Shown: one piece after another, positions 3,211 through 55,759 of the stretch
Layout: each line of letters starts with the position of its first letter
How positions within the stretch are numbered: the first letter of the stretch is position 1
NCBI GenBank assembly: GCA_963514005.1
Contig: OY740809.1
Span: 14,942,001-15,006,000, forward strand
From: Raja brachyura
Taxonomy: Eukaryota
Direction of reading: 5' to 3'
Length of the DNA: 64,000 nucleotides
Notes under the pieces: generated by a model
Databases searched by the model: none
Told to the model about the DNA's origin: nothing
Seen by the model: the letters and a program-made list of their open reading frames with translations, nothing else
Made by a program: the position numbers and the translations under genes

Positions 3211-3265
3211 CTAGACGCCCTTCTGATTATAGATTAGACCCAACTTCCAGTACCTGCTTATTTAA

Positions 3266-3841
3266 GGGCCTGTCCTACCAGCATCCGACTCCATGCGATG
3301 AGTGCGACCAAACCGGCAGCGGGGGCCGCGCGGAGGTCGGGTGATCCCCTGTACAGGGCCGTTCCCACCAGCATGCGCCTGCACGTGGCGAGCGCGACCA
3401 AACCGGCAGTGAGGGCCGCGCGGAGGTCGGGTGAGTGGCGCAACACGGCGCAAAGTGAGGTGAACTTGGAGCGAAGTCTGAAGGTAAGTTCGCCAGGACA
3501 GAGAGGAACACACAGAGAGGGGCATAGAGGCACACACAGAGCGGGCCATGGAGCCACACACACAGAGGGTCACGGAGGCACCTACAGAGAGGGTCACGGA
3601 GGCACGACGTCGAGGCAGTGTGTAATGCGTCGAGGCAACTGTGAGCCGACAAGCCGTTGCCGCGTGGAATGTTTGAACATAGTCAGTTTTTCGGAGCCCC
3701 GCGCGATGTCGGGACGAACTCCGCACAATTCCGCACGGCTCCGGCGATCGAAGTGGGACCGGCCCCGCGACGCCGGACAGCTCAAGCGACCACGTTAGGT
3801 TGCGCTCATTGCATAGATTTGCATGCTTGTGGGACAGGCCC
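3266..3841. mobile_element. GC/CpG-rich MITE, TTAA-flanked (copy 1)
   Basis: TIR gggcctgtcc(y)ac.agcat ... atgcttgtgggacaggccc, TTAA at 3262-3265 and 3842-3845, internal ~90-bp direct repeat. An inverted second copy lies at 53132-53719. Confidence 0.85.
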
Positions 3842-4469
3842 TTAAGGTTTGGTTTAAAAGGAAACAATGTAATAAAAAGCTGTGACATTTCCCTGGGGTA
3901 TTTCCCCTGCTGTATGTTCCTGCTGCAATACATGTGGTGGACATATTGGATCAGCAGCAGAGGACAGGGGGAGCTGATTATTCTGACTCCTGTAGAAGAA
4001 CGCTAAACACCAGAGTTCTGCACATGAAGCAGGATGTACTTAGTCAAACATGCTTTCTGAAACCTTTCTTATATGTAATTGGTAGTTCTGTTTCAGTATT
4101 GAAGCAACAAACACATTTTATTTGTTTAAACAATGACAGTACTTCCAGAAAACGATTGAATAATACAACACAGCCATTTTCTCCAGAGATAGATTCAATT
4201 GTTTGGAACGGTGACATATTGAGCTATGGATATTAACCTTGCAGCTTAAGTTCCCTAAATGTGCAGTTAATTTGTGATGGCAGCCATGGTTTCCTACCTG
4301 TAAAATCACATTATGCTTGGAATCTTTAATTTACCAGTTCAGTGTCCACTGTTCAGTAGGAGGGATAAGTGACAAGAATATTTTTAGAGGATGAAGACCC
4401 CCTGAGCATCTCTGCATCTTCAGTACAATAGAGGAACAATGCAGGAAAGGAATCCGTTGATCTTGTTTA

Positions 4470-7273: not shown

Positions 7274-8408
7274 NTACATATATACACATATGCTAACATA
7301 ATTAACAGGTTACAATTATTCTGAAGAAAAGAATTGGAGGTGCTATATTTTATCAAGGAGCACATTTACAAATTCCCTTCAGGATATACATTCTCTTTTC
7401 TGCTTAAATATTGTTTTAGTGTTGATGTAATATTCTATAAGTCATAATATCATTAGCCTGTGGTTTGAGAATTTGGACATTAAGTATAATATATGTCTCT
7501 GAATGGTTTGTGCAGCCGTTAAATGTGCTTTTGGATTTTGCTATAATAAAATTGATTTGCTAAGTTATTAAATATATTTTGTGCATCATATACAAGCTAT
7601 TTATAATAGCCAGGGAGACTACTGTATATTATCCTGTATCTATAAAGTAAATTTATCTACTTACAACTGCTAACTTGTTATTGCAATTCACTAAAGTAAT
7701 TGCGTTTTCTTGATGGCTGAAATACAATAATGCATGTCGATATTCCCATTTCCTTGAAGAAAGCCATACAAAAGAAAATGTGATTAGAAACAAGGTCTCT
7801 GAGAACTTGCACATAAATTTTACATAGTAAATTTACTTCATATTTCAAACTCTTCTTCACAAGATTGTATCTTTAAGAGGGTAAGAATGAAGTGCAACAT
7901 CTTGGAAACATCAGCATAGTATGCATGCCTTTTATCAGTAGTTGTGCTGGAAGGTCAAGTAAGTTAAAATGAGAAAGTGTTGTTAAACGTATCTGTCCAA
8001 AAGATTGTTCAATTAATATTGCAATGCCTCATTATGCAGCAGGAATCAACCTCGATTTAAATAGCCCTCTGCATTCTCAGAACATCCCAAAGGATGATAT
8101 GGCCAATTCAGAACTTTGAAAGCACAGTTTTGTATTCTTGTTCTATGCCTGTATAAAACTCGAGAGTCTTCAAGGTACAACAGAAGTCTTTATTACATTA
8201 ACTCAATGCTGGCAGCAAGCCAACTAAAAATGTCTGCAACCAGACAATCTGACTGCACACTTGCACTGTGTACAGACAGAGATAACTATATACAAAACAT
8301 CTCCCTTTGTCCTGTGCAGCACCACCTGCTGCATGGGAGGAGCAATGGGTCCTCCCACCCCACATGGTCCACCAAACATCACACTACCTCTTTCCAGTTT
8401 GAACATCT

Positions 8409-9092: not shown

Positions 9093-9110
9093 ATCCCACT
9101 TCTGACACCA
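9093..9110 (-). promoter_or_regulatory. Primer-binding site complementary to tRNA-Leu 3' end
   Basis: Plus strand atcccacttctgacacca matches the recalled vertebrate tRNA-Leu(CAA) 3' end including CCA, 1 nt from the LTR. Confidence 0.8.
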
Positions 9111-10579
9111 CTTTCGTATTCTTGTTCTATGTCTGTATAAAACTTGAGAGTCTTCAAGGTACAGCAGAAATCTTTATTACATTAACTCAATGCTGGCAGC
9201 AAGACAACTAAAAATGGCTGCAACCACACAATCTGACAGCACATTCACACTGTGTACAGACAGAGATAACTATATACAAAACATCTCCGTTTGTCCTGTG
9301 CAGTGCCACCTACTGCACAGGAGGAGCAATGGGTCCTCCCACCTCACACGGTCCACTAAACATCACACACAGTCACTCAGTGGTTACAAATATAACAGTT
9401 AATTTACATCTGGCATAATCCCATAAACAACAATGTAAAACATAATTGTTCTGCTGGGTTTTATTGAATGGGCGTTTAGCTAGCAATATTGGTCAGAAAA
9501 ACTCCTTTGCTCATCTTCTAATGGTGCCATGGATTTCCTTAAATCAGCTTGAGGTTGATAAATGGTAACACATAATTCAGTATGGAACAAGCAAAGTTAA
9601 CATAGATTGTCGAGAGGCCAGTTCCAGGAAAGACATTTTCAGACTTTTGTCTCCGCTTTGAAATGAATGACTTTGAACTGAAGAACACCCGGTGTGATTC
9701 AAGCAATGGTATTACGAGTAAAAATGGAGAACCAGTTTGTATTGTGCCTATTTGTGGACGGTTGAGTGCGTAAAAATAAATGTTTCATTTGCTATCATAA
9801 TCTTTATTTATGAGTTAAACCATAAAAAGTTACCTGAATCTTTTGATAAAGTTAGACCAATATGTCTAGTTATTCGTACTCCTTGAATGTCAAACCTTTC
9901 TTTGCTATACCACTTTGTGGTTTAACAGGCTGTATTGCATTATTGAAAAAGTCAATCCACATGACCTATAATTCTATGACTGTGTCACACAATGAGGCCA
10001 TTGCAGCACCAATGTAATAATAAGGGAGTCTAACCTGAAGAAAAAAAAATTCAGAACTTGGATTTGATTTTATAATTCCACTTTCTTCGTATAATAAATA
10101 TTTTTCATAGGGAAAAATAATGATATAACTTATTTATCTTTTCATTATTCTTTGTCAGAAGGGTTGAGTGAATAGTTTTTGACTCATCACAGATAAATCT
10201 GGTTTGAGAATGTATTAACATACACAGACCTTCTTCCATCCTGTCAGTGCTTTCATCCACTTCTTTATAGAATAGTGCATGTTAAAATATGTTTTAAATT
10301 GCAATTTTATATCCACATTTAGTTGTGATATTTGTATTGAAATAATCATGATTTAAAACATTTCTTGTAATGGAAGAGTTTCAAAAATGTACAAAAGAAC
10401 AAGGTGACGGGGCAAGTTTCTGTAAATGATCTTGTGAAAGATTTCATTACAGGAGAATTAAAAAAAAACTTTAAATGCCTTGCTTCTGAATATAACTTTG
10501 AAACTTAGTTCATTTGTGCTTTAATATTTTGGGCAAAATAAACAAGTTTGGTAAATTTTGTAATATGTTTTTTAAATTA

Positions 10580-21871: not shown

Positions 21872-22188
21872 TTCATATCTTTATTTTGTTTGATAATGCT
21901 TCCATCAAGAAATTTGAAATTATTTACTACATTTAAATTTCTACTTAAATGCAGGTCATGGTTTTAAACCAAAAAATTGATTGATAAGTTCCTATTTATT
22001 TCATTTTCAAGAGTTAATTAGTTACTCTCAAGATAGTTTAAAATGCAGCACATTTCAGAAACTTGGTCAAGATTTAAATTCTGAAGCTCTCCAGTTGACT
22101 CTTTTTGGGGATTAAGAAAAACATGTAATGATCATATTGGACTGTTATCTAACTGAGTTGATCCTGTAAATATTTGGAATTTATTAAG

Positions 22189-22283
22189 GGTTACACAAAA
22201 AGCTGGAGAAACTCAGCGGGTGCAGCAGCATCTAAGGAGCGAAGGAGATAGGCGACGTTTCGGGTCGAGACCCTTCTTCAGAC
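22189..22283 (-). mobile_element. 95-bp Penelope-derived mini-element with hammerhead core
   Basis: 14-bp TSD tggaatttattaag (22175-22188, 22284-22297); nearly identical to 44727-44820. Confidence 0.85.
22254..22281 (-). ncRNA. Minimal type I hammerhead ribozyme core
   Basis: CTGAAGA-A-GGGT(CTCG)ACCC-GAAAC-GTC gives CUGANGA, stem II, GAAA, palindromic ACGT stem III and a GUC triplet. Stem I pairing is short. Confidence 0.65.
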
Positions 22284-22348
22284 TGGAATTTATTAAGACA
22301 GATTTGAGAATGCATTTGAAATGTTGAAGAGTTTCCCTTAGCCCTAAC

Positions 22349-22440
22349 CAGTCTGAAGAAGGGTCTTGACCTGAAACATCACCCATTCCTTCTCGCCACA
22401 GATGCTGCTTGTCCCGCTGAGTTACTCAAGCCATTTGTCT
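22349..22440 (+). mobile_element. Penelope terminal-repeat fragment
   Basis: gtctgaagaagggtcttgacctgaaacatcacccattcc...gagttactc. Confidence 0.7.
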
Positions 22441-23034
22441 CTAAATAAAATGACCGTACGAAGACGAAGAAATTGGCCAAGGCTTCATGTCCCAGAGTTC
22501 CTGGCGGATGTCAGTTCCATTGCACAGATCCGTTGTGGTTGCTACACAAACATAGACTTGTGACAGCTTTTCACTGACAGTGGACTGACACTTGACTTTT
22601 CCAGAGGCTTGCTGTAAGGCCTGAACACGCTGTAATTTCCCAGAAGTTACAGTGAGATATCTGCCTGCTGAGCCTCTGTCCGGTCTGCTAACCCCATTTA
22701 TTTCAGTGGAGAGGAAGAAAAGGACAAGAAGTGTTTGTGAGTTTGATTTTATGATTTTTTTAATTAAAAAAAAGGATTTAAAGTTCAAATTTTTAAAACC
22801 TTTTAAAGTTTAATGTAAGTTCTTTCATTAATCTTAATAGTCTTTGAATGTTTATTCATGTCGGGAACATTAGAAAGTATTAATATCCTTGTTAGGTTTG
22901 ACTTTCACTTTAACCAACTTTCATTGTCTTGATGGAAGATCATTGACCTGCAACTTTAATACTATTATGTCTCCACAGATGCAGCATGACTTGCCGAATA
23001 TCAACAATATTTCATGTTCTGATTTCAGATTTCT

Positions 23035-32318: not shown

Positions 32319-32556
32319 CTGTTATTTTTTCCATTGAGAGGAGAGAATCAGATATGTTTTGTCAACACAGATCACATGTTGTGTTAAATTATAAAGTGAA
32401 ATTATGCCGAGTGTGTATGTGGTTTAAATAATTTATTGAAGTAAGCAATGCTCTCCTTATTTAGATAGTTAAAACAAAGCAATTAAGTCAAGCAGTTGAC
32501 CTTTCTAACTGGTTGTTTCTCTACCTGTGTGTGAGATTCAACAAGAACAAAATACT

Positions 32557-32721
32557 TTGTTTAAGAAGGAACTGCAGATGCTGGAAAATCGAAGGTCGAC
32601 AAAAGTGTTGGAGAAACTCAACATCTATGGAGCGAAGGAAATAGGCAACGTTTTGGGACGAAACGCTTCTTCACTCCACAGATGCTACCGCACCCGCTGA
32701 GTTTCTCCAGCACTTTTGTCT
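32557..32721. mobile_element. Palindromic Penelope terminal-repeat insertion
   Basis: 14-bp TSD aagaacaaaatact (32543-32556, 32722-32735); inverted arms. Confidence 0.8.
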
Positions 32722-35242
32722 AAGAACAAAATACTGTTGTATAGAAGAATTATGCCAGAACTCCTCCAATGGAAATCTGTTGGCGTAAAACATCTATCCC
32801 ATAGGCCAATGATTGGAAATCTTATTATTTTTCTTCTTATATTGCTGTTATAGTGCAATTTACCATATGAAAGCTTCTAATTTTGAAAATAATAAAGACA
32901 AATAATTTTGGTGGGTTATATCGAGGCAAGACACAATGTTGAAAGGCCAGTTCTTGAAAAATAATTGAACTGCGTCCAGTTCTTGGAATTTTGATACTAT
33001 TAACAAACTAAATATATTATTCAAGATGTGCAATGGGATGTTTTATGATCTAGGCATCCAGCTGATGGAAAAAGGAATGTGTGAATATAAAATTAAATGT
33101 CAAAGCCGAGATTTAAAAATTCAAGATCAACGAGGGAAAAGCTAGCCTTTGGACTTTCACACATGAAATGTCAAAGTGATAGAGAGGCATGCTGGTGATG
33201 TGAAATGCTTGGAATAGTCAATAGGAAAGAAAAGTATATGAATAAAACAATCATACTTCATCCAAAAAAATCATAATTGATAACATGCTTTCTTTTGTGA
33301 GCTGAACTATATAAAGAACATTAGTGGAATAAATAAGATCAAAGACCCTAGCCAGTTGATTAGTGGTGTGGCTGAAGCAATGGAGATGATATATACGTGA
33401 GAATTGGTTGCCACACTAAATCGACAAATAAGTTTATGAATGGGCATTTTCCATTTCAAACTTGGATTGCGATTTGCAGAGAAATCCTGTCAGTTCCAAA
33501 TGCCATTGCTGACCCCCCCCCAACACTCTGGCTCCCCACTGCATCATGTACATCTCCCCATTGAAGGGCAGGGAGGAGGTTTACATGGGGGTTGCACCAA
33601 AAGCAAGTGAGGATTTGGCATACAATTTAATAATAATCCTGGGGTTCATTTATTCACCTTTCCCTCACATTAACTTTCTCTATACTTTTGGGTAAGTATT
33701 TCCCTGATTGTCCACTACAGAACCCATTGAATTAAGAAGCCAAATTATACACCAGATGTCAGTGTGGAATTTGTGTAACACATTAGGACTTTTGTCTTCA
33801 AAATTACATCTAGGACTATTGCAATGTTTCAGAAACAATTAGACAGGTACATGGATAGGATAGGATTTGAGGGATATGGGTCAATCGCAGGTAGGTGGAA
33901 CTAGTGTAGATGGGGCATGTTGATCGGTGTGGGTAAGATGGGCTGAAGGGCCTGTTCCCACATTGTATGAGTCTGTGAACTTTCAGGAGAAGCTAGTAAT
34001 GCAGGCACAGCATTGTATTTGATTAAAGAGAATGAGAATGAGAAGGGGAAAGGGTGTGTTCCGATTTCTTCAGAAATATTGTGTGAGCATTGGTCAATGG
34101 CCTGTCACTGGAAATCTGCCTTTAATCTCACATAGTTTCATAGGAAATTGATGACCTTCCTTGGTGGCTTCTTGGTTGTTGCTCTTGACAATAATCAATG
34201 ACCTCACAAGACAACAATGGCCATTTCAACCCCTTCCCTTTGTGGACCAATATACACTTTATTTCCCACGAGGAATACGTCCATGATAGATATACACACA
34301 CAAGGCAAATGGTGAGGGAAAGCAATGTGGCAGTAACAGCTTGCTATTAATAACAGGAGAGGCATGAATTATGGAGTTTAACCATGATAGTGGCTTCTTG
34401 GGGATTGTTATGTAAAATAGCAAGTTAGAATGTATTGCAAAATACCTAGTGAGAATGTGAGATGCGCAGGTTTGTAGGTTAATTGACTTCTGCAAATTAT
34501 CCCCAGTGTCTAGCATGCAACTAATGTATGGGGATTGTTTGTAACTAAGAACTCAATCGGCTGAAGGGTCTGTTTCCACACTGCATCTCTAAACTTGCAT
34601 CATTGGGTTTGCACTGCAGCAGTGCTGTCTATTTCTGGCAGACAGTAGGAGCTGATGTGTCTTTAATTTTGGAAATGTGAACTTCAAGGTAGGAGTTAGA
34701 AAAAAGGGGCGTTACTTCACATTGACATCTGCTGCATTATTTGGCTTCTTAATTCAATGAGTTCTGTTGTGGACAATCAGGGAAATAATAATAAGATTAA
34801 ACGACAACTTACCTGTTCGAAGTTTGATCTTTATTTTATGAGGAGTTACGATGAGGGATTACGTGAAGAAGTCCCGCCTGGCACATGATCGGCATACTTC
34901 AAAGCAGCGGCATGAAAAACACAGAACCAATAGCCGGAGTAAGATAGTAAGGCTCACATAGTCTAGAACTACCAGATGATCATTTATATTATGAGGGTTG
35001 GGAGCGGAAGGCACATAATCCCTCATCGTAACTCCTCATAAAATAAAAGATCAAACTTCAAACAGGTAAGTTCTCATTTAATCTTACTATTTTACTTGGG
35101 AGTCACGTGAGTGACTACGTGAAGATTTTAAAGCTCTGTGTTTTTTATGTCGTAGATTCATTCCATACGACACTCTTAGTCAATACAGTAGTGAGTAAAT
35201 AATATATTTTTTAAAACATTGTTTCAATTTATGTAATGTCTT

Positions 35243-35950
35243 TTAATCTTGCGCTATTTTCCTGACACAATGCCCAATCAGACAGAATGGGGGAAAAGCA
35301 TAAAAGAACATATTCCCCCAATGTAGTGAGAAAGCATCCACCGCTACTGCTCCTGGATTGTGTTCCCATGACACGTATTTGGGCAATTGGTGATTTAATC
35401 TAGATGCAAACAGATCAATGTCCGGTAATCCATACCGACTGACAATATTTTTGAAAACTTGTGGATTTAACATCCATTCTGTACTGTCTTTAAATTTTCG
35501 TGATCTTTTGTCTGCCAAAATATTGTCTCTCCCTGGGAGATAAATAGCTGAAAGCCAAATATTCTTACCAATACACCAATGCCACATCTGGTTTGCCAGA
35601 TGATCACATGATAATGATCTTACTCCACCCATGTGATTGATATATGCCACAGCTGTGGTATTGTCTACTTGTACTTGGACATGCAAATCCTTCATAGTAG
35701 AACAATAAGCTTTTAATCCATAAAATGCCCCCAGTAACTCCAAATAATTTATACCATATGTTTGGAGAAACAAATCCTCTTGGACAGTCCATCTGCCCCC
35801 ACAGCTGGTATTATTATCCGTAGCACCCCATCCGAGAGCACTGGCATCAGTTTGCAAAATCACTGCTGGCTGCTGAACTAACATGTTTTTAACAGCTTGT
35901 GGAACATTCTCAATCCACCAATGTAATTCTGATAAAACTTCCTTTGGCAA
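35243..35950 (-). pseudogene. DIRS RNase H plus N6-adenine methyltransferase-like domain (truncated)
   Basis: RNase H motifs TDAS..GWGA, INYLEL, VDNTTAVAYIN, NILAD; MT motifs DIDLFAS, DAFSLHW, YAFPPF. Confidence 0.85.
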
Positions 35951-36061
35951 TTACATGGGCCTATCAAAATGACCTACTCGCTCTATAAGCGCTTGTGTTT
36001 TTGCCCTTTGGAGATTTTGGTAATGCAGTGGACCAAATTCTACTGCAGGAAATGCTGCTAC

Positions 36062-36960
36062 TCACTTACCAATAACCTTAGCAACTTCTCGGATGGAGGG
36101 ATAAGGTTTGTGAATAAGGCACCGACATACATTTGTAATATCAACAACCTTGTTTATTGGTAAAGTTACTAACATGGTAACTGAATTAATCACAAACCCC
36201 AAATATTCAATACTTTGGGATGGCTGTAGCTTAGATTTTGTTGGCTGGATCAGGAAACCTAGCCTTTCAAACAGACTTGTAGTTGCTGAAACTGATTTTT
36301 CAGCTGACTCCTGATTAGCATTGACAATTAAAATGATATCTAGATAAGCCATAACGATGTGTTTTTGTGCCCTTAGCAGTGCAAGTGCTGGTTTCAACAA
36401 TTTTGTGAACAGCCTAGGAGCTGAGCTTAATCCATCAGGTAATGCTTTGTATTGCCACAGCTGTCCCATCCAATTAAATTTCAAATATCTGCAAAAGTGA
36501 CGATGAATTGGTACTGAATAATATGCATCCTTCAAATCTATTGTAGCCATGTAACAATCTGTCGATACCAGCTGTATTGCAGTGTTGAAGGTATCCATTT
36601 TGAAATGTTTATATTGGACAAAAGTATTAAAATGTGTGAGGTCCAAAATTATTCTACAACCCCCATCTTTCTTGGGTCTGGGGAAAATATTTGATACAAA
36701 TTGTTGTGGATCCACAACTGATTTCTCAATAACTCCTTTTTTAAACAAATTCTTAACCTCTTTATTATTTGAGATTTTTCAAATGCAGAAAACACCAAAT
36801 TACGATTAGGTTTATTCTGTCCCTGTGGATCAATACCTTCTACAAATTCAATGGTAGATCCTAAAACAGTATTTAATATAACCCGGTCAGATGTTATACA
36901 GTCCCATTCATCATAAAACATTTGTAATCTACCACCAATCTGAGGTTCATCCAAAGATTT
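36062..36960 (-). pseudogene. DIRS reverse transcriptase (frameshifted; YLDD mutated to YLDI)
   Basis: GGRLQMF..W..ITSD (pol start), PKKDGGCRIILDL, IDLKDAYYSVPI, LPDGLSSAPRLFTK, AYLDI, YLGFVIN. Confidence 0.88.
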
Positions 36961-38192
36961 TTCTGTGATAGGATAAAGTTTTTGTACTTCTCCGACCGCA
37001 CGTGGTGGTCTCCTTCTCCCAACATATGGGTGAACATTCGGCTGTGCTGGTTGGTAATACTTCTTTACCATATTCCTGCCTCGGCTTGTTCCAGCTCCAA
37101 AATCAAATCCCCTTCTCATTTGACCGGCCCTTCTTTGGCCAAAAATGAAGGGTTTCAAGAGGCTAATAGTCTTTGCCTCATCATCAATATCTTTAATTTG
37201 TTTAGACAGATTTTCTCCGAACAGATAACCAGGAGTTTGAATATTGCTTTTGATCTGCACAGACCTACAAATCTTGGATGTAAAATGGGCCGAATGGCAA
37301 TCTTCCTCATACAATTAATCTAAAAAAAATGAGTTGCAGAACAATGCCAACATATCCTGTTGAACTTTTGTCATTCCACAACCTTCCACTTGCTTCCCAA
37401 AAGCAGAGATGCCAGCCAAAATCAGTTTGAGGACTCTTTGAAATCGTATTTCCTGCGTCCGCATAATTGAAGACATGGGCGACCAAATAGTCGGATTCAC
37501 CGTAGGTACCTTCAGTGAGGCACAATTAACAGGTGGTTTATATAATTCTGCTGTTTCAACCATAACAGCTTCCTGAAGCTGGTGAGAGACCAAATAAATT
37601 AATGTTGGCCGCCAGGTTTTCTTCCATGGCCTCACCGCCTCCTTCAGGTATAGCAAAACATTGTGCCACATCAGGCACACCTGGAATAATATTTTTGTAT
37701 TGTGGTGGGTACTCATGACCAAAATCACCACCTTCAGGATCAGTCTCATGCTGCCCTGGTACTCCTGAGACTTGCTCAAAGGAGACTTCCTCCAGCCCAA
37801 TCCCAGGCTCTGGAGTTTCAAATTCCCAATTCGGTATGGCACCATATTCATGGGGCTGCCTGGGAATATTCTGGATTTTTAGACCCTTGGTTGAATAATG
37901 TCTGGAGCATTTTCTCCATTTGTTCCATTCTAAGCCATAAGGCTTTTCTATCTGGAGGACTTTCAGAATCACAGTCATCAGAAACCACGGGCCTCTCAGA
38001 TTTTCTTTTACATTTTTTAGTCACTGGAATTTCCTCCGTGGCTTCTGCTTGTGGAGCAACCAAAGGCTCACTAACGGGTATTTCAATGGCCACTGGTATC
38101 GGAACCGGCTCCGCACTAATCTGCTGTCCCAACTGTTTTTCTTCTCCCCGGGACGCACGTTTTACCCACGATTTTTTCGGACCTTTCTCCAT
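36960..38192 (-). pseudogene. DIRS gag-like ORF1 (frameshifted)
   Basis: Overlapping ORF pieces 38192-37848, 37978-37556, 37851-37315 and 37314 onward, upstream of pol; P.NC..L.VP.VNP.IW motif typical of DIRS ORF1. Confidence 0.65.
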
Positions 38193-38412
38193 TTAAATTT
38201 TTTAAACTCTTCCTGGCTTTACCCACCAGCCTCACGGAGTTTGAAATGCCCTGGAAGTAACATAATTTACTTAACTGCGCTGGTGGAGCTGCGCTCTGCA
38301 GCTCTTTCCCTACCGACAGCGTCGACGTAATGGCGATCAAGCGCCAGGTGGGGCTTCTTCACGTAGTCACTCACATGATTCTGAAGTAAAATTAAAACAG
38401 TGATTTGCAGTA

Positions 38413-38967
38413 CATTTGTCAGGAAATCCAGAAGTTGACCTTCCTAATTGGTTCTTTCTGTGTCTATTGATGTGTGTGCAATCCAACAAGACCCAGATAT
38501 GTTGGACTCAGGATTTATGCCAGAACTGCTCAAAGCTAAATCTGTAGACCCTCAAAATCCTTCCCAAAATTAAATTACTATAAATCTTATTATCATGCTG
38601 TTGTAATGCAATTTACCATATGGAGATTCTCTTCCTGTGATTCAGTGCAGAATTTCTTCCATGGCCTTGCTCATAATCTCCTGTACCATTATTTCATTGA
38701 CTCTAGAGTTCCATGCATCCTCTCTCCTTTGCTCCCACCATTGGTAACCTTGCCGTCACTACTTGGACCAAACAGTCCATTCATCTCACAACCTTTGCTG
38801 CTTCTTAAAATGCATCACTTGACCGTCTGAGAGCCTGAGCTGCAGGGAGAGGTTGGGCAGGCAGGCATTTTATTCCTTAGAGCGCAGGAAGATGAGGGGT
38901 AATCTTGTAGTGTATAATATCATGAGGGTAATAGATAGCGTAGGTGCACAGACTCTGTTGCCCAGAG
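38413..38967 (+). repeat. Locally duplicated segment (paralogues at 42933-43462 and, more diverged, 32490-32875)
   Basis: Shared gaagttgaccttcctaattggttctttct, gatttatgccagaact and ttcagtgcagaatttcttccatggccttgc; the 38.4 and 42.9 kb copies also share a downstream CR1 piece. Confidence 0.85.
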
Positions 38968-42019: not shown

Positions 42020-42600
42020 CTTATGATTCTGGACTGCCACCACTGCCAATATATCAGTTCTTAAATAAAGAGGCACAAATTGTAAATGCTGCCTCAGCAT
42101 CTCACCTGCAAACTTGATATAGTATGTCTTTTTTTTGTTTAACTCCAATTCTCTCACAGTAAAGATCAATATGCCATTTGCTTTCCTAATCATTTGGTCC
42201 ACTGACTTGCCATCTATGTGTGCTTTAAGCACAAAAGCGCCTCTGTTCATTCATTTAAAATCTTCCTCTATTTGTGCTAAGGCCTGATTTTTCATTCTTC
42301 CTTCTGAAGTGCATGATCTTACGCTCTTCTGCATTAAGCTCCATTTGGCAAGTTTTAACTTATGCACTCAAGCTATTATTGCGCAGTTCAAATAACCTCA
42401 TTATAGCAGACCCGCTTGCCTATTTTTGTCCCATCAGCAAATTAGATACCAACTCTGCACCCCCTGCTTAAGTCATTAATGAAAATAGTAAATAATTGAA
42501 GACTGGGATCTGATCTTTGGAGTATTGACTTGACTGTTAGTTACATCCTTCTTGCCTGGAAAAAGACCTATTTAATCTGATTTTCTGCCTTCAATGTAAT
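42020..42600 (-). mobile_element. Degraded CR1 RT fragment (adjacent CR1 tail + at 41890-42015)
   Basis: IRKANGILIF..RELE..LRQHLQFVPLYLRTDIL. Confidence 0.6.
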
Positions 42601-42808
42601 AACAATTATGTATGCATGATATGTTATAGGTCATGATATAAGCAATTGCAGAATTAGCATTTTGGGACATTTATAACTTCGAGAATGCTTTGTTGTCAAA
42701 ATTTACTTGATAATTAGATTGTTCCTCAGCTGTTGCCCCCAGCTCTTTTTTATTGAAAGAAAACTATAGTTTTGCTACAAAGCAAACCCATTAATATTTT
42801 GATGAAAG

Positions 42809-43501
42809 TAAAAATAAAACTGTGGATGTTGGAAATATAAAATGAAACAAGAATACTAGAAATACTTGATAGATCGGGCTGCATCTGTGGCAAGAGTAAC
42901 AGCGTTAACATTTTACATTGAAGACGCATCAAATTTGTCAGGGAGTCCAGAAGTTGACCTTCCTAATTGGTTCTTTCTCTGTCTATTGCTGATGTGGGTG
43001 CAATCCAATAAGACTCAGATACTGCTGGACACAAGATTTATGCCAGAACTACTCAAAACTAAACTTCTAGGCCCTGGAAATCTTTCGCAAAATTACATGA
43101 CCAGAAATCTTATTATTGCATGAAGTGCAATTTGCCATATGGAAATTATTTTCCTGTAATTCAGTGCAGAATTTCTTCCATGGCCTTGCCTTCCCCTATT
43201 CTTTCAGCCTCAAAACCTCCTGCTTCATTGTTTCATTTCAGTTCCATGCATCTTCTCTCCTTTGCTCCCACCATTGGTAACCATGCCTTCACTACATGGA
43301 ACCAATAGTCCATTCACCTCATACCTCTGCTGCTTCTTAAAATGCATTACTCGACTGCTTGAGAAGACTTCATTCCTTGGAGCGCAGGAGGATGAGGGGT
43401 GATCTTGTCCCTGTATAAGATCATGAGGCGAATAGATAGGGTAGATGCAGTTTTGCCCAGAGCCTGATCTGCTGAGTATTACCAGCATTTTCAATTCTTA
43501 T
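42809..43501. mobile_element. Old Penelope-type palindromic insertion enclosing a copy of 38413-38967
   Basis: Terminal-repeat arm 42815-42930, inverted arm 43463-43492, degenerate TSD ttaatattttgatgaaag / ttaacattttgataaag. Confidence 0.55.
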
Positions 43502-43829
43502 TTAACATTTTGATAAAGATTTGTAATTATTTTTTATCCTGCAAATATAGAAATATTTCCTCACCAAGATGTTAGATTAGATTTTGGAATACATTTCAGC
43601 CCTTTCTCTGTTTTAGCAGCTTGACCATTATGGATTGCTGGTCTACGCGTCAATCTACCTTTGGATTGCTTGTGTATTGCTGAACATCACATCTGTTTTT
43701 ACATTGATAGCATGCTTACCACTACAATACCTCATTACGCCACTGACATTTGTTAAGCATTGACATGTGTAGTTAGAGATTGCTTATGATCAGCCGTAAT
43801 TGTGGCAAACCATAAGAGTGATAAAGACA

Positions 43830-44118
43830 TGCTGGCGAGGTGGTAGAGTGTTGCCAACTTATAAAGACCCGGGGTCGATCCTAATTAGCGGTGCTGTTAG
43901 TATGGATTTTTTATGCTCTGGCTGTAACCTGCATAGGTTTTCTCCTGGAGCTCCAGTTTACTCCCACACTCCAAAAACATACTGGTTGTAGGTGAATTGG
44001 CTTGGTAAAATGGTAAATTGTTCCTAGTGAGTGTAGGATAATGTTAGTGTGTGGGGATTGCTGGTCTGCGTGTACTCAGTGGGCTGAAGGGCCTGTTTCC
44101 ATGTTTTACCTCTAAACA
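43830..44118 (+). mobile_element. V-SINE
   Basis: ggtagagtgttgcc...ggggtcgatcct B-box through ctaaa tail. Confidence 0.7.
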
Positions 44119-44689
44119 AAATTAAACACAGTGTTGGAGTAACTCAGTGGGTCAAGCATGGAGAAAATAGATAGGTGACATTTCAGGTCAGTGCCCTTCT
44201 TCAGACTGACTGTAGTAGGGGGGGAAGAAAGCTGAGAGAACGTCTGGAGTGTGATAGGTGGATACAGGTGAGATGGGGTTGACAAAGGGCAGAGATGAAA
44301 AGACAAAAAGAAAAGGGGCAAGAAATGCAAAGCTAAAGGAAGGATTATGGATGGAAGTGGAAAGGGGGAGGGGGGGGGGAGGTTGGAGGGAGAAATGGTG
44401 CCTATCCAAATGGGACACATGGAAGAAAGGGGTGTTAAGGGGGGAGGGAGGAGTTTGTGGGTAGTTCCACTAAAATTGGAGAATTAAATGTTCATCCAAT
44501 TGTAAGGCACATAAGTGGAAGATAAAGTGCTGTTCCTCCAGCTTGCTCATTCTGGCTATGGAAGAGGCCCAGGTCTGAAATTGATTTTAAATGATTAGCA
44601 CAAAGGATATGCAGCAACCTTGGCTACCTGCGCACGTGTTCGGTGAAATGGACGTCTTATTTATGATCGGGCATGCCGATGTAAAGAAG

Positions 44690-45800
44690 TGTTAAAGAAG
44701 GAACTGCAGAGGCTGGCGAATCGAGGGTTACACAAAAAGCTGGAGAAACTCAGCGGGTGCAGCAGCATCTAAGGAGCGAAGGAGATAGGCGATGTTTCGG
44801 GTCGAGACCCTTCTTCAGACTGGTCAGGGAGCACGGAAACGAGAGATATAGACAGTGATGTGGAGAGATAAAGAACAATGAATGAAAGATATGCAAAAAA
44901 GTATTGAAGATAAAGGAAACAGGCCATTGTAAGCTGTTTGTAGTGTGAAAATGAGAAGCTAGTGCGACTTGGGTGGGGGGGGGGGGGAAGATGGAGAAGG
45001 AATGTCAGGGCCCGAGGGCTGAGGGAGAGGTGGGGAGGGGGAGGAGGTAGTCTGGGTTAACAGAATTGAGAAAATTCAATGTTTAAGCCCAGAGGATGCA
45101 GACTCCCCAAGCGGAATATGAGGTGCTGTTCCTCCAACTTGCGGTGTTGCTCACTCTGGCCGTGGAGGAGGCCCAGGACCAAGAGGTCGGATACGGAATG
45201 GGAGGGGAAGTTGAAGTGCTGAGCCACCGGGAGGTCGGGTTGGTTATTGCGGACCGAGCGGAGGTGTTCGGCGAAATGATCGCCCAGCCTCCGCTTGGTC
45301 TCACCGATGTAGATCAGCTGGCATCTGGAGCAACGGATGCAGTAGATGAGGTTGGAGGAGGTGCAGGTGAACCTCTGTCGGACTTGGAATGACTGCTTGG
45401 GTCCCTGAAAGGAGTGGATGGGGGAGGTGAAGGGACAAGTGTAGCATCTCTTGCGGTTGCAAGGGAAAGTGCCCGGGGGAGGGGTGGAGCGGGAGGGAAG
45501 GGAAGAATTGACAAGGGATTTGCGGAGGGAGCGGTCTTTGCAGAAGGCAGACAGGGGGGGAGATGGGAAGATGTGGCGAGTGGAGGGGTCATGCTGGAGG
45601 TGGCGAAACTTGCGGAGGACTATCTGTTGTATGCGCTGGCTGGTGGGGTGAAAGGTGAGGACCAGGGGGACTCGGCCCTTGTTGTGAGTGGGGGAATGGG
45701 AAGAGAGGGCAGTGTTGTGGGGTATGGAGGAGACCCTGGTGCGAGCCTCATCTATAGTGGGGGAGGGGAAACCCCGTTCTCTGAAGAACGAGGACATTTG
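44690..45800 (-). mobile_element. Young 5'-truncated Penelope-like element with hammerhead-bearing terminal repeat
   Basis: Open ORF remnant 45057-45797, then 3' UTR and terminal repeat with ctgaagaagggtctcgacccgaaacatc (44791-44818). Confidence 0.9.
45057..45797 (-). CDS. Penelope ORF C-terminus: RT thumb/linker, Cys motif and GIY-YIG endonuclease (partial)
   Basis: FRERGFP, VPLVLTFHP, CNRKRCYTC, FTCTSSNLIYCIRCSRCQLIYIGETKRRL...H, VAQHFN, EQHLIFRLGSLHPLGLN. Confidence 0.85.
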   Translation of the reverse strand: MSSFFRERGFPSPTIDEARTRVSSIPHNTALSSHSPTHNKGRVPLVLTFHPTSQRIQQIVLRKFRHLQHDPSTRHIFPSPPLSAFCKDRSLRKSLVNSSLPSRSTPPPGTFPCNRKRCYTCPFTSPIHSFQGPKQSFQVRQRFTCTSSNLIYCIRCSRCQLIYIGETKRRLGDHFAEHLRSVRNNQPDLPVAQHFNFPSHSVSDLLVLGLLHGQSEQHRKLEEQHLIFRLGSLHPLGLNIEFSQFC

Positions 45801-46379
45801 TGATGACTGCCTCAGGCCATGTTGGGAGTGCTAAATGGCATAGATGAGGTTTGGAGAAGATGCACGTGAACTCCTGTCTCACTTGGAAGGACTGTTGGAG
45901 TCCCTGAATGCATGTGAAGGCAAAGGTATAGGGACAAGTGTTTCATCTTCTATGGTTGTAGAATAAAGTACTTGGGGAGGGGTTGGTTTTGGTGTGATGA
46001 GTGAACCAATAAATTGTGGAGGGAGTGGCCTCTGTGGAAAGGAGCGGAGATGGGAAGATTTGAATTGTGATGAGATCACATTAAAGGTGGCAGAAATGTT
46101 GGTGAATGATGTGTTGGATGCTGGATGGAGGGGTGAAAGGTAAGGACCAGGCAAAAACTCTTGTTCCATCTAGAATGAGGGCGAGCGGGAAAGGAACTAC
46201 AATACACAGAAGCACCATGGGTGAGGGATCCATTTATGACAGAAGGAGAGAAACCACATTTACTAAAGGAAGAGGACACCTTGGATGGCCTAGAATGTAA
46301 AGCCTCATCTTGCGACAAATTGTGAGCCAGGAATGGTACCTTTGCAAGATGCAGAGTGGGACGAGGTGTTATCCTTCCG

Positions 46380-46997
46380 TGACCATTTTTACATTGACAA
46401 TACCAAGAATAGACTATGCAACCATATCACCAAACACATGTTCAGTCTGCCAAGGCGTCCTGGTTGATAACCATTTTCCGACTGACCTTTCTCATCCATT
46501 GCCAGACTGAGGACTGGTCAAACTGGAGGAACAGCACCTCATATTCCATTTGGGTAACTTACAACCTGAACGTTGAATTCTCCAATTGTGTGTAAATAGC
46601 ATACAATCAAACTCCCCCCACCCTCCCTTATCCCCCCCCCTTTCCTGCGCCCACCTGGATATGCACCCATTTCTCACTTTCCCCTGTCCCCTTTCATCTA
46701 CATTCCCTTCTGTGGCTTCGCATTTTACAACTCTTCTATCCTTATCTTTTTTTCTCTCACTTTTTGTTTTTTCATCTCTGGCCTTTCTCCAACCATGTGC
46801 CAATCAATTCTCCCCTCACCTATTACTGGCCAGCGTTAGTTCCCACCTCTCTTCAAGCTTTCTTCCCCTCCTACAACAATCAGTCTGAAGGATCCCAATC
46901 TGAAATGTTGCCTATCCATGTTGCCAAGAGATGCTGCCCGACTCGCTCCAGGACTTTATGTCTTTTATGGTAAACCAGCATCTGCAGTTCCTTGTGC
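46380..46997 (+). mobile_element. Penelope 3' fragment in opposite orientation
   Basis: KLEEQHLIFHLGNLQPER-like remnant plus terminal repeat ending accagcatctgcagttcctt. Confidence 0.7.
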
Positions 46998-48422
46998 TTG
47001 CATAAGAGTATTGAAACTACTCACAATTTTCTATTTTATTCATAATGAGCAGATTTTGTACACAAGGTCCTAGAACAAAATTGTAGAGAATTACAGAAAT
47101 GTAACTTATATTTTTGCATGTTTGCCATTTACATTCACTTCTCAAATGGGGGATCTGGTTTAATCAAACAACCCATCCTTTCCCTTAGAACCCAATTAGT
47201 CGACTTCAGATGTTTTGTTGTAAGGCCTCCATCGAGATCTGCTTCCGCAACCCTCTCAGGTAGTTGGTGCCATTTCTCATCAAACATTTGTGAGCAGGAC
47301 AAATCTGTTTATGTTATCTCCACTTGTCAGTGGAAACAGCTTCTCTGCATTTGTTTTCTCCGTAGAGCCTCAAGAATTTTGTAAGCTTTTGCTGTTGAGT
47401 CCAAGAGGACATTTTGAGCTTCGTGAGCAATCTCAGCTATTGGAAATCAGAATGAGTAGTCAGTGGTTCTTGCAACTTAAATTATTTCAGCTGGTGATGA
47501 TTTTTGTTTCCTATTAAGTAAAAATAATAACAAAATCTGTTCCACCCACAAGGTTCACAAATTTCCAAGAAGATCGTTTTTTAAATTAAGTGGATGGATG
47601 TGCTTTTCTAAACAAAAGGAACAAGAAGTCACCAACATGCAATAAAAGTAATAATGCAAAATAGATTTTATAATTCTACTATCCCACAAATTAGTGAGGA
47701 AATGGAAGAAGAGAGTCACTGAACATTTTACACATTCTTCTAAGAGCAGGTCATAAACAAATCAAGGCAATATTCATTTTGTTTCTGAATTATACATTAT
47801 CCTTGAATGTATGGATATAAACTGAGGTCAAACACATTGGAGATGCTCAGATTACTGGTTTGGAATTGAAAGAAAAATATTTAGCAATTGCCTAGTGTTC
47901 TTCAGATCATCTGAAACAAATGCAAATACCTAAGAACCTAAAATGAATATCTGTCTTTTTCTCCATATTTATTGTTTCTGCATGCATATATTAGAAATGC
48001 TGATGACAAATGACAGATGGTTCAAGAAAAAATAGATTTAAGGGAAAGACTTTAATCTGTGAAATACAAATCAGGTTATTTGTTGTGCTAATCACTTTAT
48101 TCAAATAAGCCTACACTTTTGTTACTGACACATTTCATATAATAAGAATAATAATACGACTAATAATATTCATTAGCATTAAGGAGCAGATTGAACGGCA
48201 ATTAAAACAAAAATAGAAATTTATTAGCTTCTATCCAGCTTGTTTTAGATGTTCTGAAAGTTTCAATACAGTATGCTTTGAATTCAAATAAATGGTCTGC
48301 GGTGCAAATAATTTTTATATGACACATGATTTCATAAGGCAAATTGGAGAGAATGTAATTGATGCATTAGGGAACATAATGGATATTCCTGCTTGCAGCT
48401 AAGACGGAAACTTTAAAGGAGA

Positions 48423-52835: not shown

Positions 52836-53131
52836 CATCAATTGAAGCTGGTTGTGGTCCTACAAGGAACAATAACAAGTATTTAAGCACACTGGACACT
52901 TACACATAATGATTTGATATGTAGGCTATTTATGGGATTTTTCATTAGTAATATAGATTAAAAATGAAGCTTTTGAAGGGATTGATATTGGATTTATACT
53001 GCAACACACTCTTGGTGATACATTATTAACCTACTCTTTTAGACAGTCAAAGGTACGCATGAAATTTGTGTTTCTATCTTATTATTGTGTTTGCAGAAAA
53101 GATGCGACATTGTATAAGTGAGAAGCTTTAA

Positions 53132-53719
53132 GGGCCTGTCCTACAAGCATGCAACTCTATGCGATTAGCGCGACCAAACGTGGTTGCTTGAGCCGTCCGG
53201 CGTTGCAGGGCCGGTCCCACTTCGATCGCCGGAGCCGTGCGGAATTGTGCGGAGTTCGTCCCGAGTTCGTCCCGACACCGCGCAGGGCTCCAAAAAACTG
53301 ACTATGTCCAAAAATTCCGCGCGGCAACGGCTTGTCGGCTCGCAGTCGCCTCGACGCATTACAGACCGCCCCGACATCGTGCCTCCGTGAACCTATCTGT
53401 AGGTGCCTCCGTGACCCTCTATGTGTGTGGCTCCGTGGCCCTCTGTGTGTGTGTGCCTCTGTGCCCTTCTCTGTGTGCCCCTCTCTGTCCTGGCGAACTT
53501 ATCTTAGACTTCGCTCCAAGTTCGCCTCACTTTGCGCCGCGTTGCGCCACTCACCTGACCTCCGTGCAGCCCCTACTGCCGGTTTGGTTGCGCTTGCCGC
53601 ATGCAGGCGCATGCTGGTGGGAACGGCCCTGTACAGGGGATCACTCGACCTCCGCGCGGCCCCCGCTTCTAGTTTGATCGCGTTCATCGCATAGAGTTGC
53701 ATGCTTGTAGGACAGGCCC
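53132..53719. mobile_element. GC/CpG-rich MITE, TTAA-flanked (copy 2, inverted relative to copy 1)
   Basis: TIR gggcctgtcctacaagcatgcaactctatgcgat / atcgcatagagttgcatgcttgtaggacaggccc; TTAA at 53128-53131 and 53720-53723. Confidence 0.88.
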
Positions 53720-55759
53720 TTAACTTTAATTTGAACCCATTTATTACAATCTGGCTAAAAATGCATCTAAGGAGCTTTGGGCAGCTGTTAATTCCACAAC
53801 ATTTTTTAAGCATCAGATACATCATTAGAGAGCCAGGTGGCTGAAGAAATTTGCCCAGAGAAGCAAAGCAATTGAGAAATCCCTAGAACTCCATTTATGC
53901 TTGCTGATTTTGAAGTGTACACGTGTGGCCTTGGGGTTTGCACCATATTCCGTCCAGCGTGCCTGTGGAAATTGGCACAAGGCAAGGCAGAGGGAAGTCA
54001 ATTTGAAACTGAAACTAAGCAGGCACTTTAATCCTTCAGTGCAGTCCAGATTCAGTTTGCCAGCCACCAGTGCTTGCACTTGGCACTAACCTTAAGCCAA
54101 AGAGTCATGGCCACATTCACAGATGGAGCTGTTTGCTGCAAACTCAAATTCAAACCCAGTTTCACCTATTTTAACTTAAAAGTGGTAGGAATGGAGAGGC
54201 AGAAAATAACCAAATGCACATTTTGGCTGTAAACAGAAAATAATTTTAATTGTGGGTTACTGCACTGCTAGCGGTAGCCCTGAAGTTCCTCCTGAGAGGG
54301 ATTTGAAGGCTCGATGACTCTGTGGTGGGCAGGACATCCGCACTGCTTCCTCATGTTTTTTTTGTTTGTTCTTCCCATAATTGCCAAAAATTAGAACCTT
54401 AAATGTGTGAGCTTCAAACGAGGAAAATTCCGACTGAATTCCTGTACAAATCCCGAGCAAGATCACCGTAACTAAAACACTCATATTTGCCAGAGAAAGT
54501 AATTCATTTCAAATTAATTGATTTCAAATTGGCAGAACACATTAGTATTTTCCAAACTGATCTCACTGGCCTCCGTGTCCTTCTTCTTGGAGAATACTGA
54601 TGCGCAAAGTTCTTATTTAGTACCTTGCCTTCATCCTCTGACTCCAAGTACAAATTCCCTCCTTCATCCTGAGATTCAAGTGAAAAGTAACTGTTGAACC
54701 TCATCAGATGTGATTTGGGCCTTTTGGCTGGAATCCCATGTTCCTGCTTGTGTTTCAAGTTGTATGGTATGAGCAGCAAAATAATTGCCTCTTTATTTTC
54801 CTACAGTCTCTACTGCTATTAACTGGCTACGACTATACTTGCAGCTAGTAAACAATCAGAGATGCCAAATGCTTACATTTTTTTTACAGAGATACTGATT
54901 ATGGTGCATGAATGACATTAATGTTTTCGCATAACTTGGTAATATTATTTGCCACCACCCTCTTTAATCTTTCCTTCATCAGATCTCCAGTCTTTCTCAT
55001 CTATGCATGCGTTGTTTGGACAAGTAGAAGCGAATATTGCAATTTAAGTATATAGATTTCAAAACCAAATTTGCATTTTTGCAAATAAATTTGTGAATTT
55101 TCCTTCAAGAAATGAAGTGGGCCAGGGGGCTAAGAATATTACATTTTTAAGACCATTTGACCCAATAAATCAGTTCTGCTGATAACAATCCTCAGATCAG
55201 TTGATAAGTTGCCTCTCGCAAGGACAGAGATTTTGTGGCATGAAGGCGAATGATTGTCAATGAACAGTGAATAATCAATATGTACTTTGGAAAGAAAGAG
55301 TAAGTTGTGGCCGCCTTATCTATTAAACCAAGGTGACATTGTTTTTGTAGTATCTTAACATAATCTTGTATAAGATATCAATCTACAACTCCTTGTGTTG
55401 CTGGGTTAGTTTAATAAAATAAACTAAACGATCTGTAGATAGTTTTAATTGCTTTAATCTTCGACTGTTTAGAAATTAAGCATAAAATTGAGCTCTAAAT
55501 AAATAATACATTAGGAAGGCAGTTTATTTGGATGTTACTTTAACCATGATAAATACACCATATGATTCAACATTTTACATGTTCGTACAATTGAAAGGCG
55601 TTGTTTGTCTCCCCTCATTATCACCTCCTCCGCAGCCAACAATGGACCATTGTGGGTTTTTGGTCATCAGTACTGGCTCTGATCCTTTTCATACCTCTAG
55701 TTTCCCTCTTCCCTGATGCACAGTCTGAAGAAGGGTCTTGTCCCAAAACATCATCTATT

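Follow-up and report, generated by a model that had tools for sequence, protein, structure and literature searches.

EN+ Penelope-like insertions have been described as carrying an inverted, 5'-truncated pLTR, with a tail of 30-40 bp on one side (PMC8557442, PMC3846280). In vitro, the Penelope enzyme was reported to extend both target strands from two start sites, and the integration steps following first-strand synthesis are called unvalidated in that report (PMC11167929). In rotifers, host DNA was found between pLTRs inside target-site duplications (TSDs) (PMC3846280). Templated insertions of L1 have been reported from tumours and cell models (10.1101/2024.08.27.596794; PMC11702581). For Penelope elements of cartilaginous fish, our literature search, covering few subscription papers, turned up no description of local seam patches. 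Templated insertions are also made by host repair (MMBIR, polymerase theta).

We analyzed a window of 64,000 nucleotides (genome G000, contig C31:14942001-15006000), in which 31.5-44.5 kb was inspected, and added about 1.8 Mb of contiguous flank. Coordinates beyond 1-64000 are counted relative to the window or carry locus identifiers (L...). An earlier note on this DNA had proposed that a Penelope-type palindrome captured a stretch of nearby host DNA, here called the filler, during integration. The features concerned are these:

42791-42808, + strand: left copy of the TSD, 18 bp (score 12.0 against the right copy)
42809-42932, + strand: the long, tailed arm; it belongs to an old Penelope-type family and is the pLTR end in reverse complement (profile match to model 3-115 of 122)
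42933-43170, + strand: unique part of the filler, copy of 38414-38651 (31/234 sites different)
43171-43365, + strand: old scrap in the filler, presumably L2-like (not a library call), copy of 38652-38832 (21/174 different)
43366-43462, + strand: shortened CR1-like scrap in the filler, copied from 38833-38967 and lacking 30 bp at its left edge (14/97 different); the CR1 label is partly the earlier note's and not a library call
43463-43501, - strand: short (tail-less) inverted arm (model 30-71)
43502-43518, + strand: right copy of the TSD, 17 bp (score 12.0 against the left copy)
38414-38967, + strand: source of the filler, without a Penelope arm at either end; its CR1-like piece runs to about 39110
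32485-32878, + strand: older copy of the filler's first ~230 bp, with ends that lack arms, later interrupted at 32557-32721 by a Penelope palindrome that has a 14-bp TSD of its own
34788-38389, - strand: DIRS-type retrotransposon directly left of the source (RVT_1 E 8e-19; inverted terminal matches; empty site in two relatives)
44690-46995, - strand: younger Penelope-type copy whose ends are homologous and which contains a piece of a GIY-YIG-like ORF (E 0.004, short of the Pfam cut-off), used as family reference and outside the event

The arms and the TSD are one Penelope-type (EN+ Penelope-like) insertion. In a profile search, seeded partly on young ends and on the left arm itself, the left arm matched at 42813-42924 (+; model 3-115, 70.9 bits) and the right arm at 43502-43461 (-; model 30-71, 16.4 bits, E 0.0065). 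The filler does therefore sit between a terminal-repeat arm and an inverted arm, as the earlier note had it. The left arm matched an independent copy at 72% over 106 bp, and extends to a decayed hammerhead-like core, the usual stopping point of arms. The minimal hammerhead core pattern is present in a young arm and decayed in the left arm; an Rfam search of 42500-47200 gave no match at E<=1. Young ends of the same type flank ORF pieces that resemble RVT_1 (E 0.058) and GIY-YIG (E 2e-4 to 4e-3), none of them reaching the Pfam cut-off. Beside one old-type arm lies an ORF piece that matches (E 7e-7) and is oriented as expected.

The degenerate duplication of about 17 bp that was said to bound the whole was also recovered. 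Its copies show 2 differences in 18, and a score of 12.0 was reached by 0 among up to 5,000 random left/right flank pairs and, with wider windows, by 2 of 4,000. The pairing of a tailed with a tail-less arm recurs in 26 of 27 TSD-positive pairs and in 70 of 109 tight palindromes. A TSD search with a strict 12-bp seed, which yielded 64 elements among 599 arms (~3% false), misses the element at 42791-43518.

Could two unrelated solo arms simply lie around a duplication, with the TSD arising by chance? Solo arms with their own TSDs are common and can imitate fillers (22176-22297), and the left arm contains a 10-bp exact match to the right flank (42905-42914). Against this stand the flank-pair null of 2/4,000, the tailed/tail-less geometry and the fact that both TSD copies adjoin the expected arm starts, and we saw no separate TSD for either arm. 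We consider such a coincidence extremely unlikely. An alternative TSD using 42905-42914 was rejected, since 18 arm bases lie between that match and the filler.

In the window self-comparison, 42933-43462 is a direct copy, about 530 bp long, of 38414-38967. The local alignment (38407-38967 with 42926-43462) has 443 of 512 aligned bases identical, confirming the diverged direct copy, CR1-like scrap included, that had been noticed earlier. In the global alignment 66 of 505 sites differ (13.1%; 95% interval 10-16%). These differences are evenly distributed over the unique, L2-like and CR1-like parts, with 4-12 per bin of ~70 bp, and the two copies lie 4,519 bp apart from start to start. An own-genome search with 42933-43362 returned two matches, the query itself and the 38.4-kb copy, and the filler is thus not a dispersed high-copy repeat. 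Within 1.46 Mb, the source is the only match of the L2-like part, and the sole further match of the unique part is the older 32.5-kb copy. The joints between the three parts are common to the source only. Because the CR1-like piece of the source extends to about 39110, the 43-kb copy is the derived one.

The ends of the filler are sharp. It overlaps the left arm by 1 bp of microhomology and the right arm by 2 bp, the latter if the right arm belonged to the left arm's subfamily. The best direct repeat at its ends is 4 bp, i.e. the filler has no TSD of its own, and neither a poly-A nor a splice mark was found in it; no RNA carrying it was listed either. The flanks outside the TSD have no further match in 1.46 Mb, and the source lacks an arm in two relatives; homology beyond the arms was not found. 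The third copy (32485-32878), which the earlier note does not mention, is older, at 69-76% identity. The filler's unique DNA is duplicated locally twice, once earlier and without arms. Elsewhere in the window we observed a 260-bp direct pair (8125-8384 and 9109-9368, 91.5%) surrounding a short ORF of retrotransposon-like character. The copies of a second pair, inverted and 590 bp long (3262-3845 and 53128-53723, 88%), are 50 kb apart.

We compared contigs of five related organisms with the window. Four relatives (D-G, ~2.5-7% diverged) cross the left TSD, the arm and the start of the filler, and two cross the right junction. Among the joints listed for these four, all carrying arm and filler, there was no empty or arm-only site. 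The event predates the splits of these relatives, and therefore they cannot order arms against filler. In two relatives the source continues leftwards, without an arm, into DNA corresponding to window positions 34758-34787; in the window, this left neighbour of the source is hidden behind the later DIRS-type insertion. That element has inverted terminal repeats, an internal complementary region and pieces of an RT ORF, and we noticed no recombinase ORF. A 70-bp inverted copy (33697-33766; 91%) of the DNA abutting its end (34718-34787) lies 950 bp away and lacks repeat ends.

According to the earlier note, filler and arms had arrived together. Joint arrival would leave each part about 7% decayed and the arms about 13% apart. 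Instead, the left and right arms differ at 12 of 40 or 15 of 47 sites (30-32%), far above the filler-source figure (12/40 against 66/505, Fisher P 0.008). In 21 other old-family palindromes the pooled arm-arm difference is 351/1125 (31%), and the sole one below 20% had been classed as young-type by an earlier classification. As no consensus enters this comparison, the family is genuinely old, and the two arms are ordinary members of it. At 26 of 108 non-CpG sites (P 5e-9 at the filler's age), the left arm departs from a consensus built from its 24 best genome matches and hence biased towards it. Overall its distance from consensus is 19-25%, compared with a change of about 7% per lineage in the filler, and no copy among 77 comes closer to it than 30%. 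By the nearest-neighbour method the left arm shows 20/104 and the right arm 5/43, pooled 17%, among 77 old-family arms that lie 16-46% from consensus (5th percentile 12% by nearest neighbours). The arms are thus about 2.5-3 times more diverged than the filler/source pair. The CR1-like piece, which must predate the copying, being in the source beforehand, is itself less diverged from its consensus (36/243) than the left arm. The claim of joint arrival was not supported here.

The right arm looks younger. It differs from the consensus at 3 of 38 non-CpG sites, and its core at 2 of 30, which is matched by 3 of 73 old arms. Its 30-mer has 128 genome matches, and the 17 near-perfect loci examined are 20% diverged (104/515) beside the match. 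We found no young branch of the old family among 26 genome matches and 128 pattern matches. Within tailed/tail-less pairs, the pair at 42791-43518 included, arm ages were discordant in 3 of 70 at P<0.05 and 0 of 70 at P<0.01. A model with one age for all parts had a log-likelihood of -21.8, old arms and TSD with a young filler -13.0, and an old left arm alone -8.1. The one-age model is therefore 8.8 log units below the two-age model, and the model with only the left arm old is 4.9 log units better still. The last requires a decayed template for one arm, which is rare, judging by the 70 pairs.

Since the filler is far less decayed than the arms, it was likely patched in later, not captured at integration, and we think that host repair probably put a templated copy into an already old Penelope palindrome. 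From this age gap we infer the order of events. An old two-armed Penelope-type insertion with its TSD would have broken near the seam long after landing. The left end would then have used DNA about 4.5 kb upstream as the template for 530 bp before it was joined to the right arm again, leaving the 1-bp and 2-bp overlaps. The copier may have been a host polymerase, in an SDSA/MMBIR-type template switch using 1-2 bp of microhomology. A 4.5-kb tandem duplication followed by a deletion could give the same product. This reading is favored because the divergence between the arms matches the old family. It is also supported because later patches into old repeats do happen: at L022:4076-4165, a 90-bp inverted local copy (of L022:5440-5529) splits the middle of an older LINE copy. 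The equally old L213 palindrome (L213:1479-1877; arms 33% apart) supports it as well, because its 13-bp TSD is still perfect and a SINE-like insert entered it later, close to the centre. Finally, the same DNA had been duplicated once before without arms (32485-32878).

Several observations stand against a later patch. The TSD (2/18) and the right arm core (2/30) look young, though both were needed for the element to be noticed at all. Of 70 long arms, 42 reach model 112 or beyond, and the filler begins at exactly this usual end point, which is what a jump at run-off would produce. Old palindromes are rarely hit by chance: they offer 1,813 bp that could be split in 1.86 Mb. None of the relatives' listed joints shows arms that lack a filler, the intermediate that a later patch predicts.

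Some of these observations favor capture at integration, in which both nicked strands would be primed on pLTR RNA. At the end of the RNA, the long cDNA would run off; the RT or a host polymerase would lengthen it on DNA or RNA close by, and it would then be joined to the short cDNA. The filler lies exactly at the seam, and the TSD and right arm agree with its age. A tailed and a tail-less arm, as in the 26 of 27 pairs above, match the two RT start sites and both-strand extension reported in vitro (PMC11167929). However, the one-age model fits far worse, the arm-arm difference is that of an old family, and neither a parent copy nor a young subfamily turned up among the genome and pattern matches. 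Capture would need a decayed or unsampled template for the left arm. In addition, L1 templated insertions are given as typically <250 bp and within 15 bp of the site (10.1101/2024.08.27.596794). We regard capture at integration as rather unlikely here. Thus the earlier reading stood as far as one insertion and a low-copy local copy are concerned, and was not supported on their joint arrival.

Old arms and a seam position would both be explained by an ancient capture at integration if gene conversion then kept filler and source alike up to a point about 7% per lineage ago; the copies are only 4.5 kb apart in direct orientation. Conversion fits poorly with the even divergence along the filler. 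Over 95 sites of the CR1-like piece, filler and source share only 3 derived sites, with 8+4 private, and that piece appears younger than the left arm. We judge this reading very improbable, and return to a later patch by host repair as the preferred one.

We scanned a region of 1.864 Mb, with 731 Penelope arms and 45 low-copy duplications within 20 kb. Curation by eye reduced 29 insertion-like pairs to 16 patch-like copies: six transposon terminal repeats, one repeat interior and three pieces of one segmental duplication were dropped, and three were merged. Among the 16, the copy at 42933-43462 is the largest, which also counts against a later patch. Thirteen lie off Penelope seams; these are about 56-220 bp long, and many are about 0.4-1.4 kb from their source. 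An enrichment of local duplications at arm inner ends (8/45 against 3.0 expected, P 0.0085) was rejected on inspection, only 3 of the 8 being seam fillers. With 42933-43462 excluded, 2 of 15 patches lie at the seams of Penelope arms against 0.18 expected (P 0.014; hand-curated and post hoc), a further point against a later patch.

Three seam fillers were found elsewhere. At L133:5139-5386 (G000:C31:15711139-15711386), a perfect 11-bp TSD surrounds one arm together with 133 bp copied in inverted orientation (92.5%) from about 0.3 kb downstream. The arm is 4/78 from consensus, both joints have 2-bp overlaps, the ages agree, and the filler has two genome copies. The arm landed in the centre of another Penelope palindrome. 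L097:7266-7539 (G000:C31:15553266-15553539) is a very young two-armed insertion with a perfect 15-bp TSD and arms 1/78 and 0/48 from consensus. Its 109-bp filler, preceded by 16 untraced A-rich bases, is identical to C18:1901491-1901608 (L184) except for one 9-bp deletion, and no arm adjoins that source. The filler comprises a SINE-like 3' end and its unique flank, in the sense in which right-hand cDNA would copy from RNA. It is a candidate jump onto read-through RNA, an RNA template being suggested by this sense. At L071:5682-5970, 187 bp copied in inverted orientation (84.5%) come after an arm (10/86); the source, L071:6959-7130, lies 1 kb away, and no TSD was found at this insertion. For two other fillers, the own-genome search gave no source.

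These three fillers and the seam enrichment suggest that a few percent of Penelope insertions capture DNA as they integrate, from near and far sources. The age-concordant captures at L133 and L097 lend some weight to the same route at 42933-43462. Other candidates were rejected: 22164-22444 is a solo arm with its own TSD, 762610 a later LTR-like insert, 819133 and -168255 belong to an element ORF, and -357173 and 1104636 are dispersed repeats. The twin-like pair 161223/166119 is an LTR pair. The screen for palindromic inserts with fillers suggested by the earlier note thus yielded, over 1.86 Mb, two younger, TSD-bounded and age-matched cases, one from 0.3 kb away and one from another contig. 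Because 13 of the 16 patch-like copies are not at Penelope seams, Penelope-type elements are a minor source of local duplication. The general idea that these small elements drive it is backed by two or three further insertions whose ages agree.

Tentatively, one broader picture may be drawn. Penelope integration might prime both target strands and bridge the cDNA ends on any template, be it DNA beside the site or kilobases from it, or RNA made on another chromosome. Host sequence would then be duplicated in a few percent of insertions. The 530-bp/4.5-kb case would be the long-range end of this series, and at L097:7266-7539 the jump would have been onto read-through RNA of a SINE on another contig.

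On the likeliest reading, 42933-43462 is one old non-coding repair scar. It cautions that DNA within a TSD, between two arms, may not have come with the element, and the divergence of arms against filler is a cheap test of joint arrival. The other seam captures matter more than this one, as Penelope integration after the first strand is presented as not worked out (PMC11167929). Extrapolating from 731 in 1.86 Mb, the genome holds hundreds of thousands of Penelope ends, and age-matched seam fillers would make template source, distance and microhomology measurable genome-wide.

Compared with EN+ Penelope-like insertions as described (PMC8557442, PMC3846280, PMC11167929), the locus shares tail-out inverted ends, a tail at one end, an AT-rich target and a TSD; here, only ends of ~120 bp and ~40 bp are left, with host DNA between them. 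The rotifer captures likewise have non-element DNA between pLTRs within a TSD. There, the pLTRs are direct and the cases are read as in trans mobilisation (PMC3846280). Here, inverted arms enclose a filler that is younger than they are and whose source lies 4.5 kb off. In L1 templated insertions, genomic DNA near the site is copied into the retrotransposon junction, which has been explained by SDSA-like switching or end processing (10.1101/2024.08.27.596794; PMC11702581). Our locus, too, holds nearby DNA that was copied within the TSD, at the 5' junction. The L1 cases, however, are typically <250 bp, lie within 15 bp and form at integration, as against 530 bp, 4.5 kb and a probably later origin here (10.1101/2024.08.27.596794).

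Host-repair templated insertions resemble the locus in the local copy, the 1-2 bp of microhomology and the loss of some bases at the site. A length of 530 bp is long for polymerase theta alone, and the copy is longer and farther from its source than the other patches in 1.86 Mb. The low-copy local source, sharp ends, short microhomology and lack of an own TSD are as host repair would leave them. Taken together, 42933-43462 works like a templated insertion, but element and filler are not of equal age, the TSD and right arm alone being compatible with it, and this sets the locus apart from a templated insertion formed during retrotransposition.
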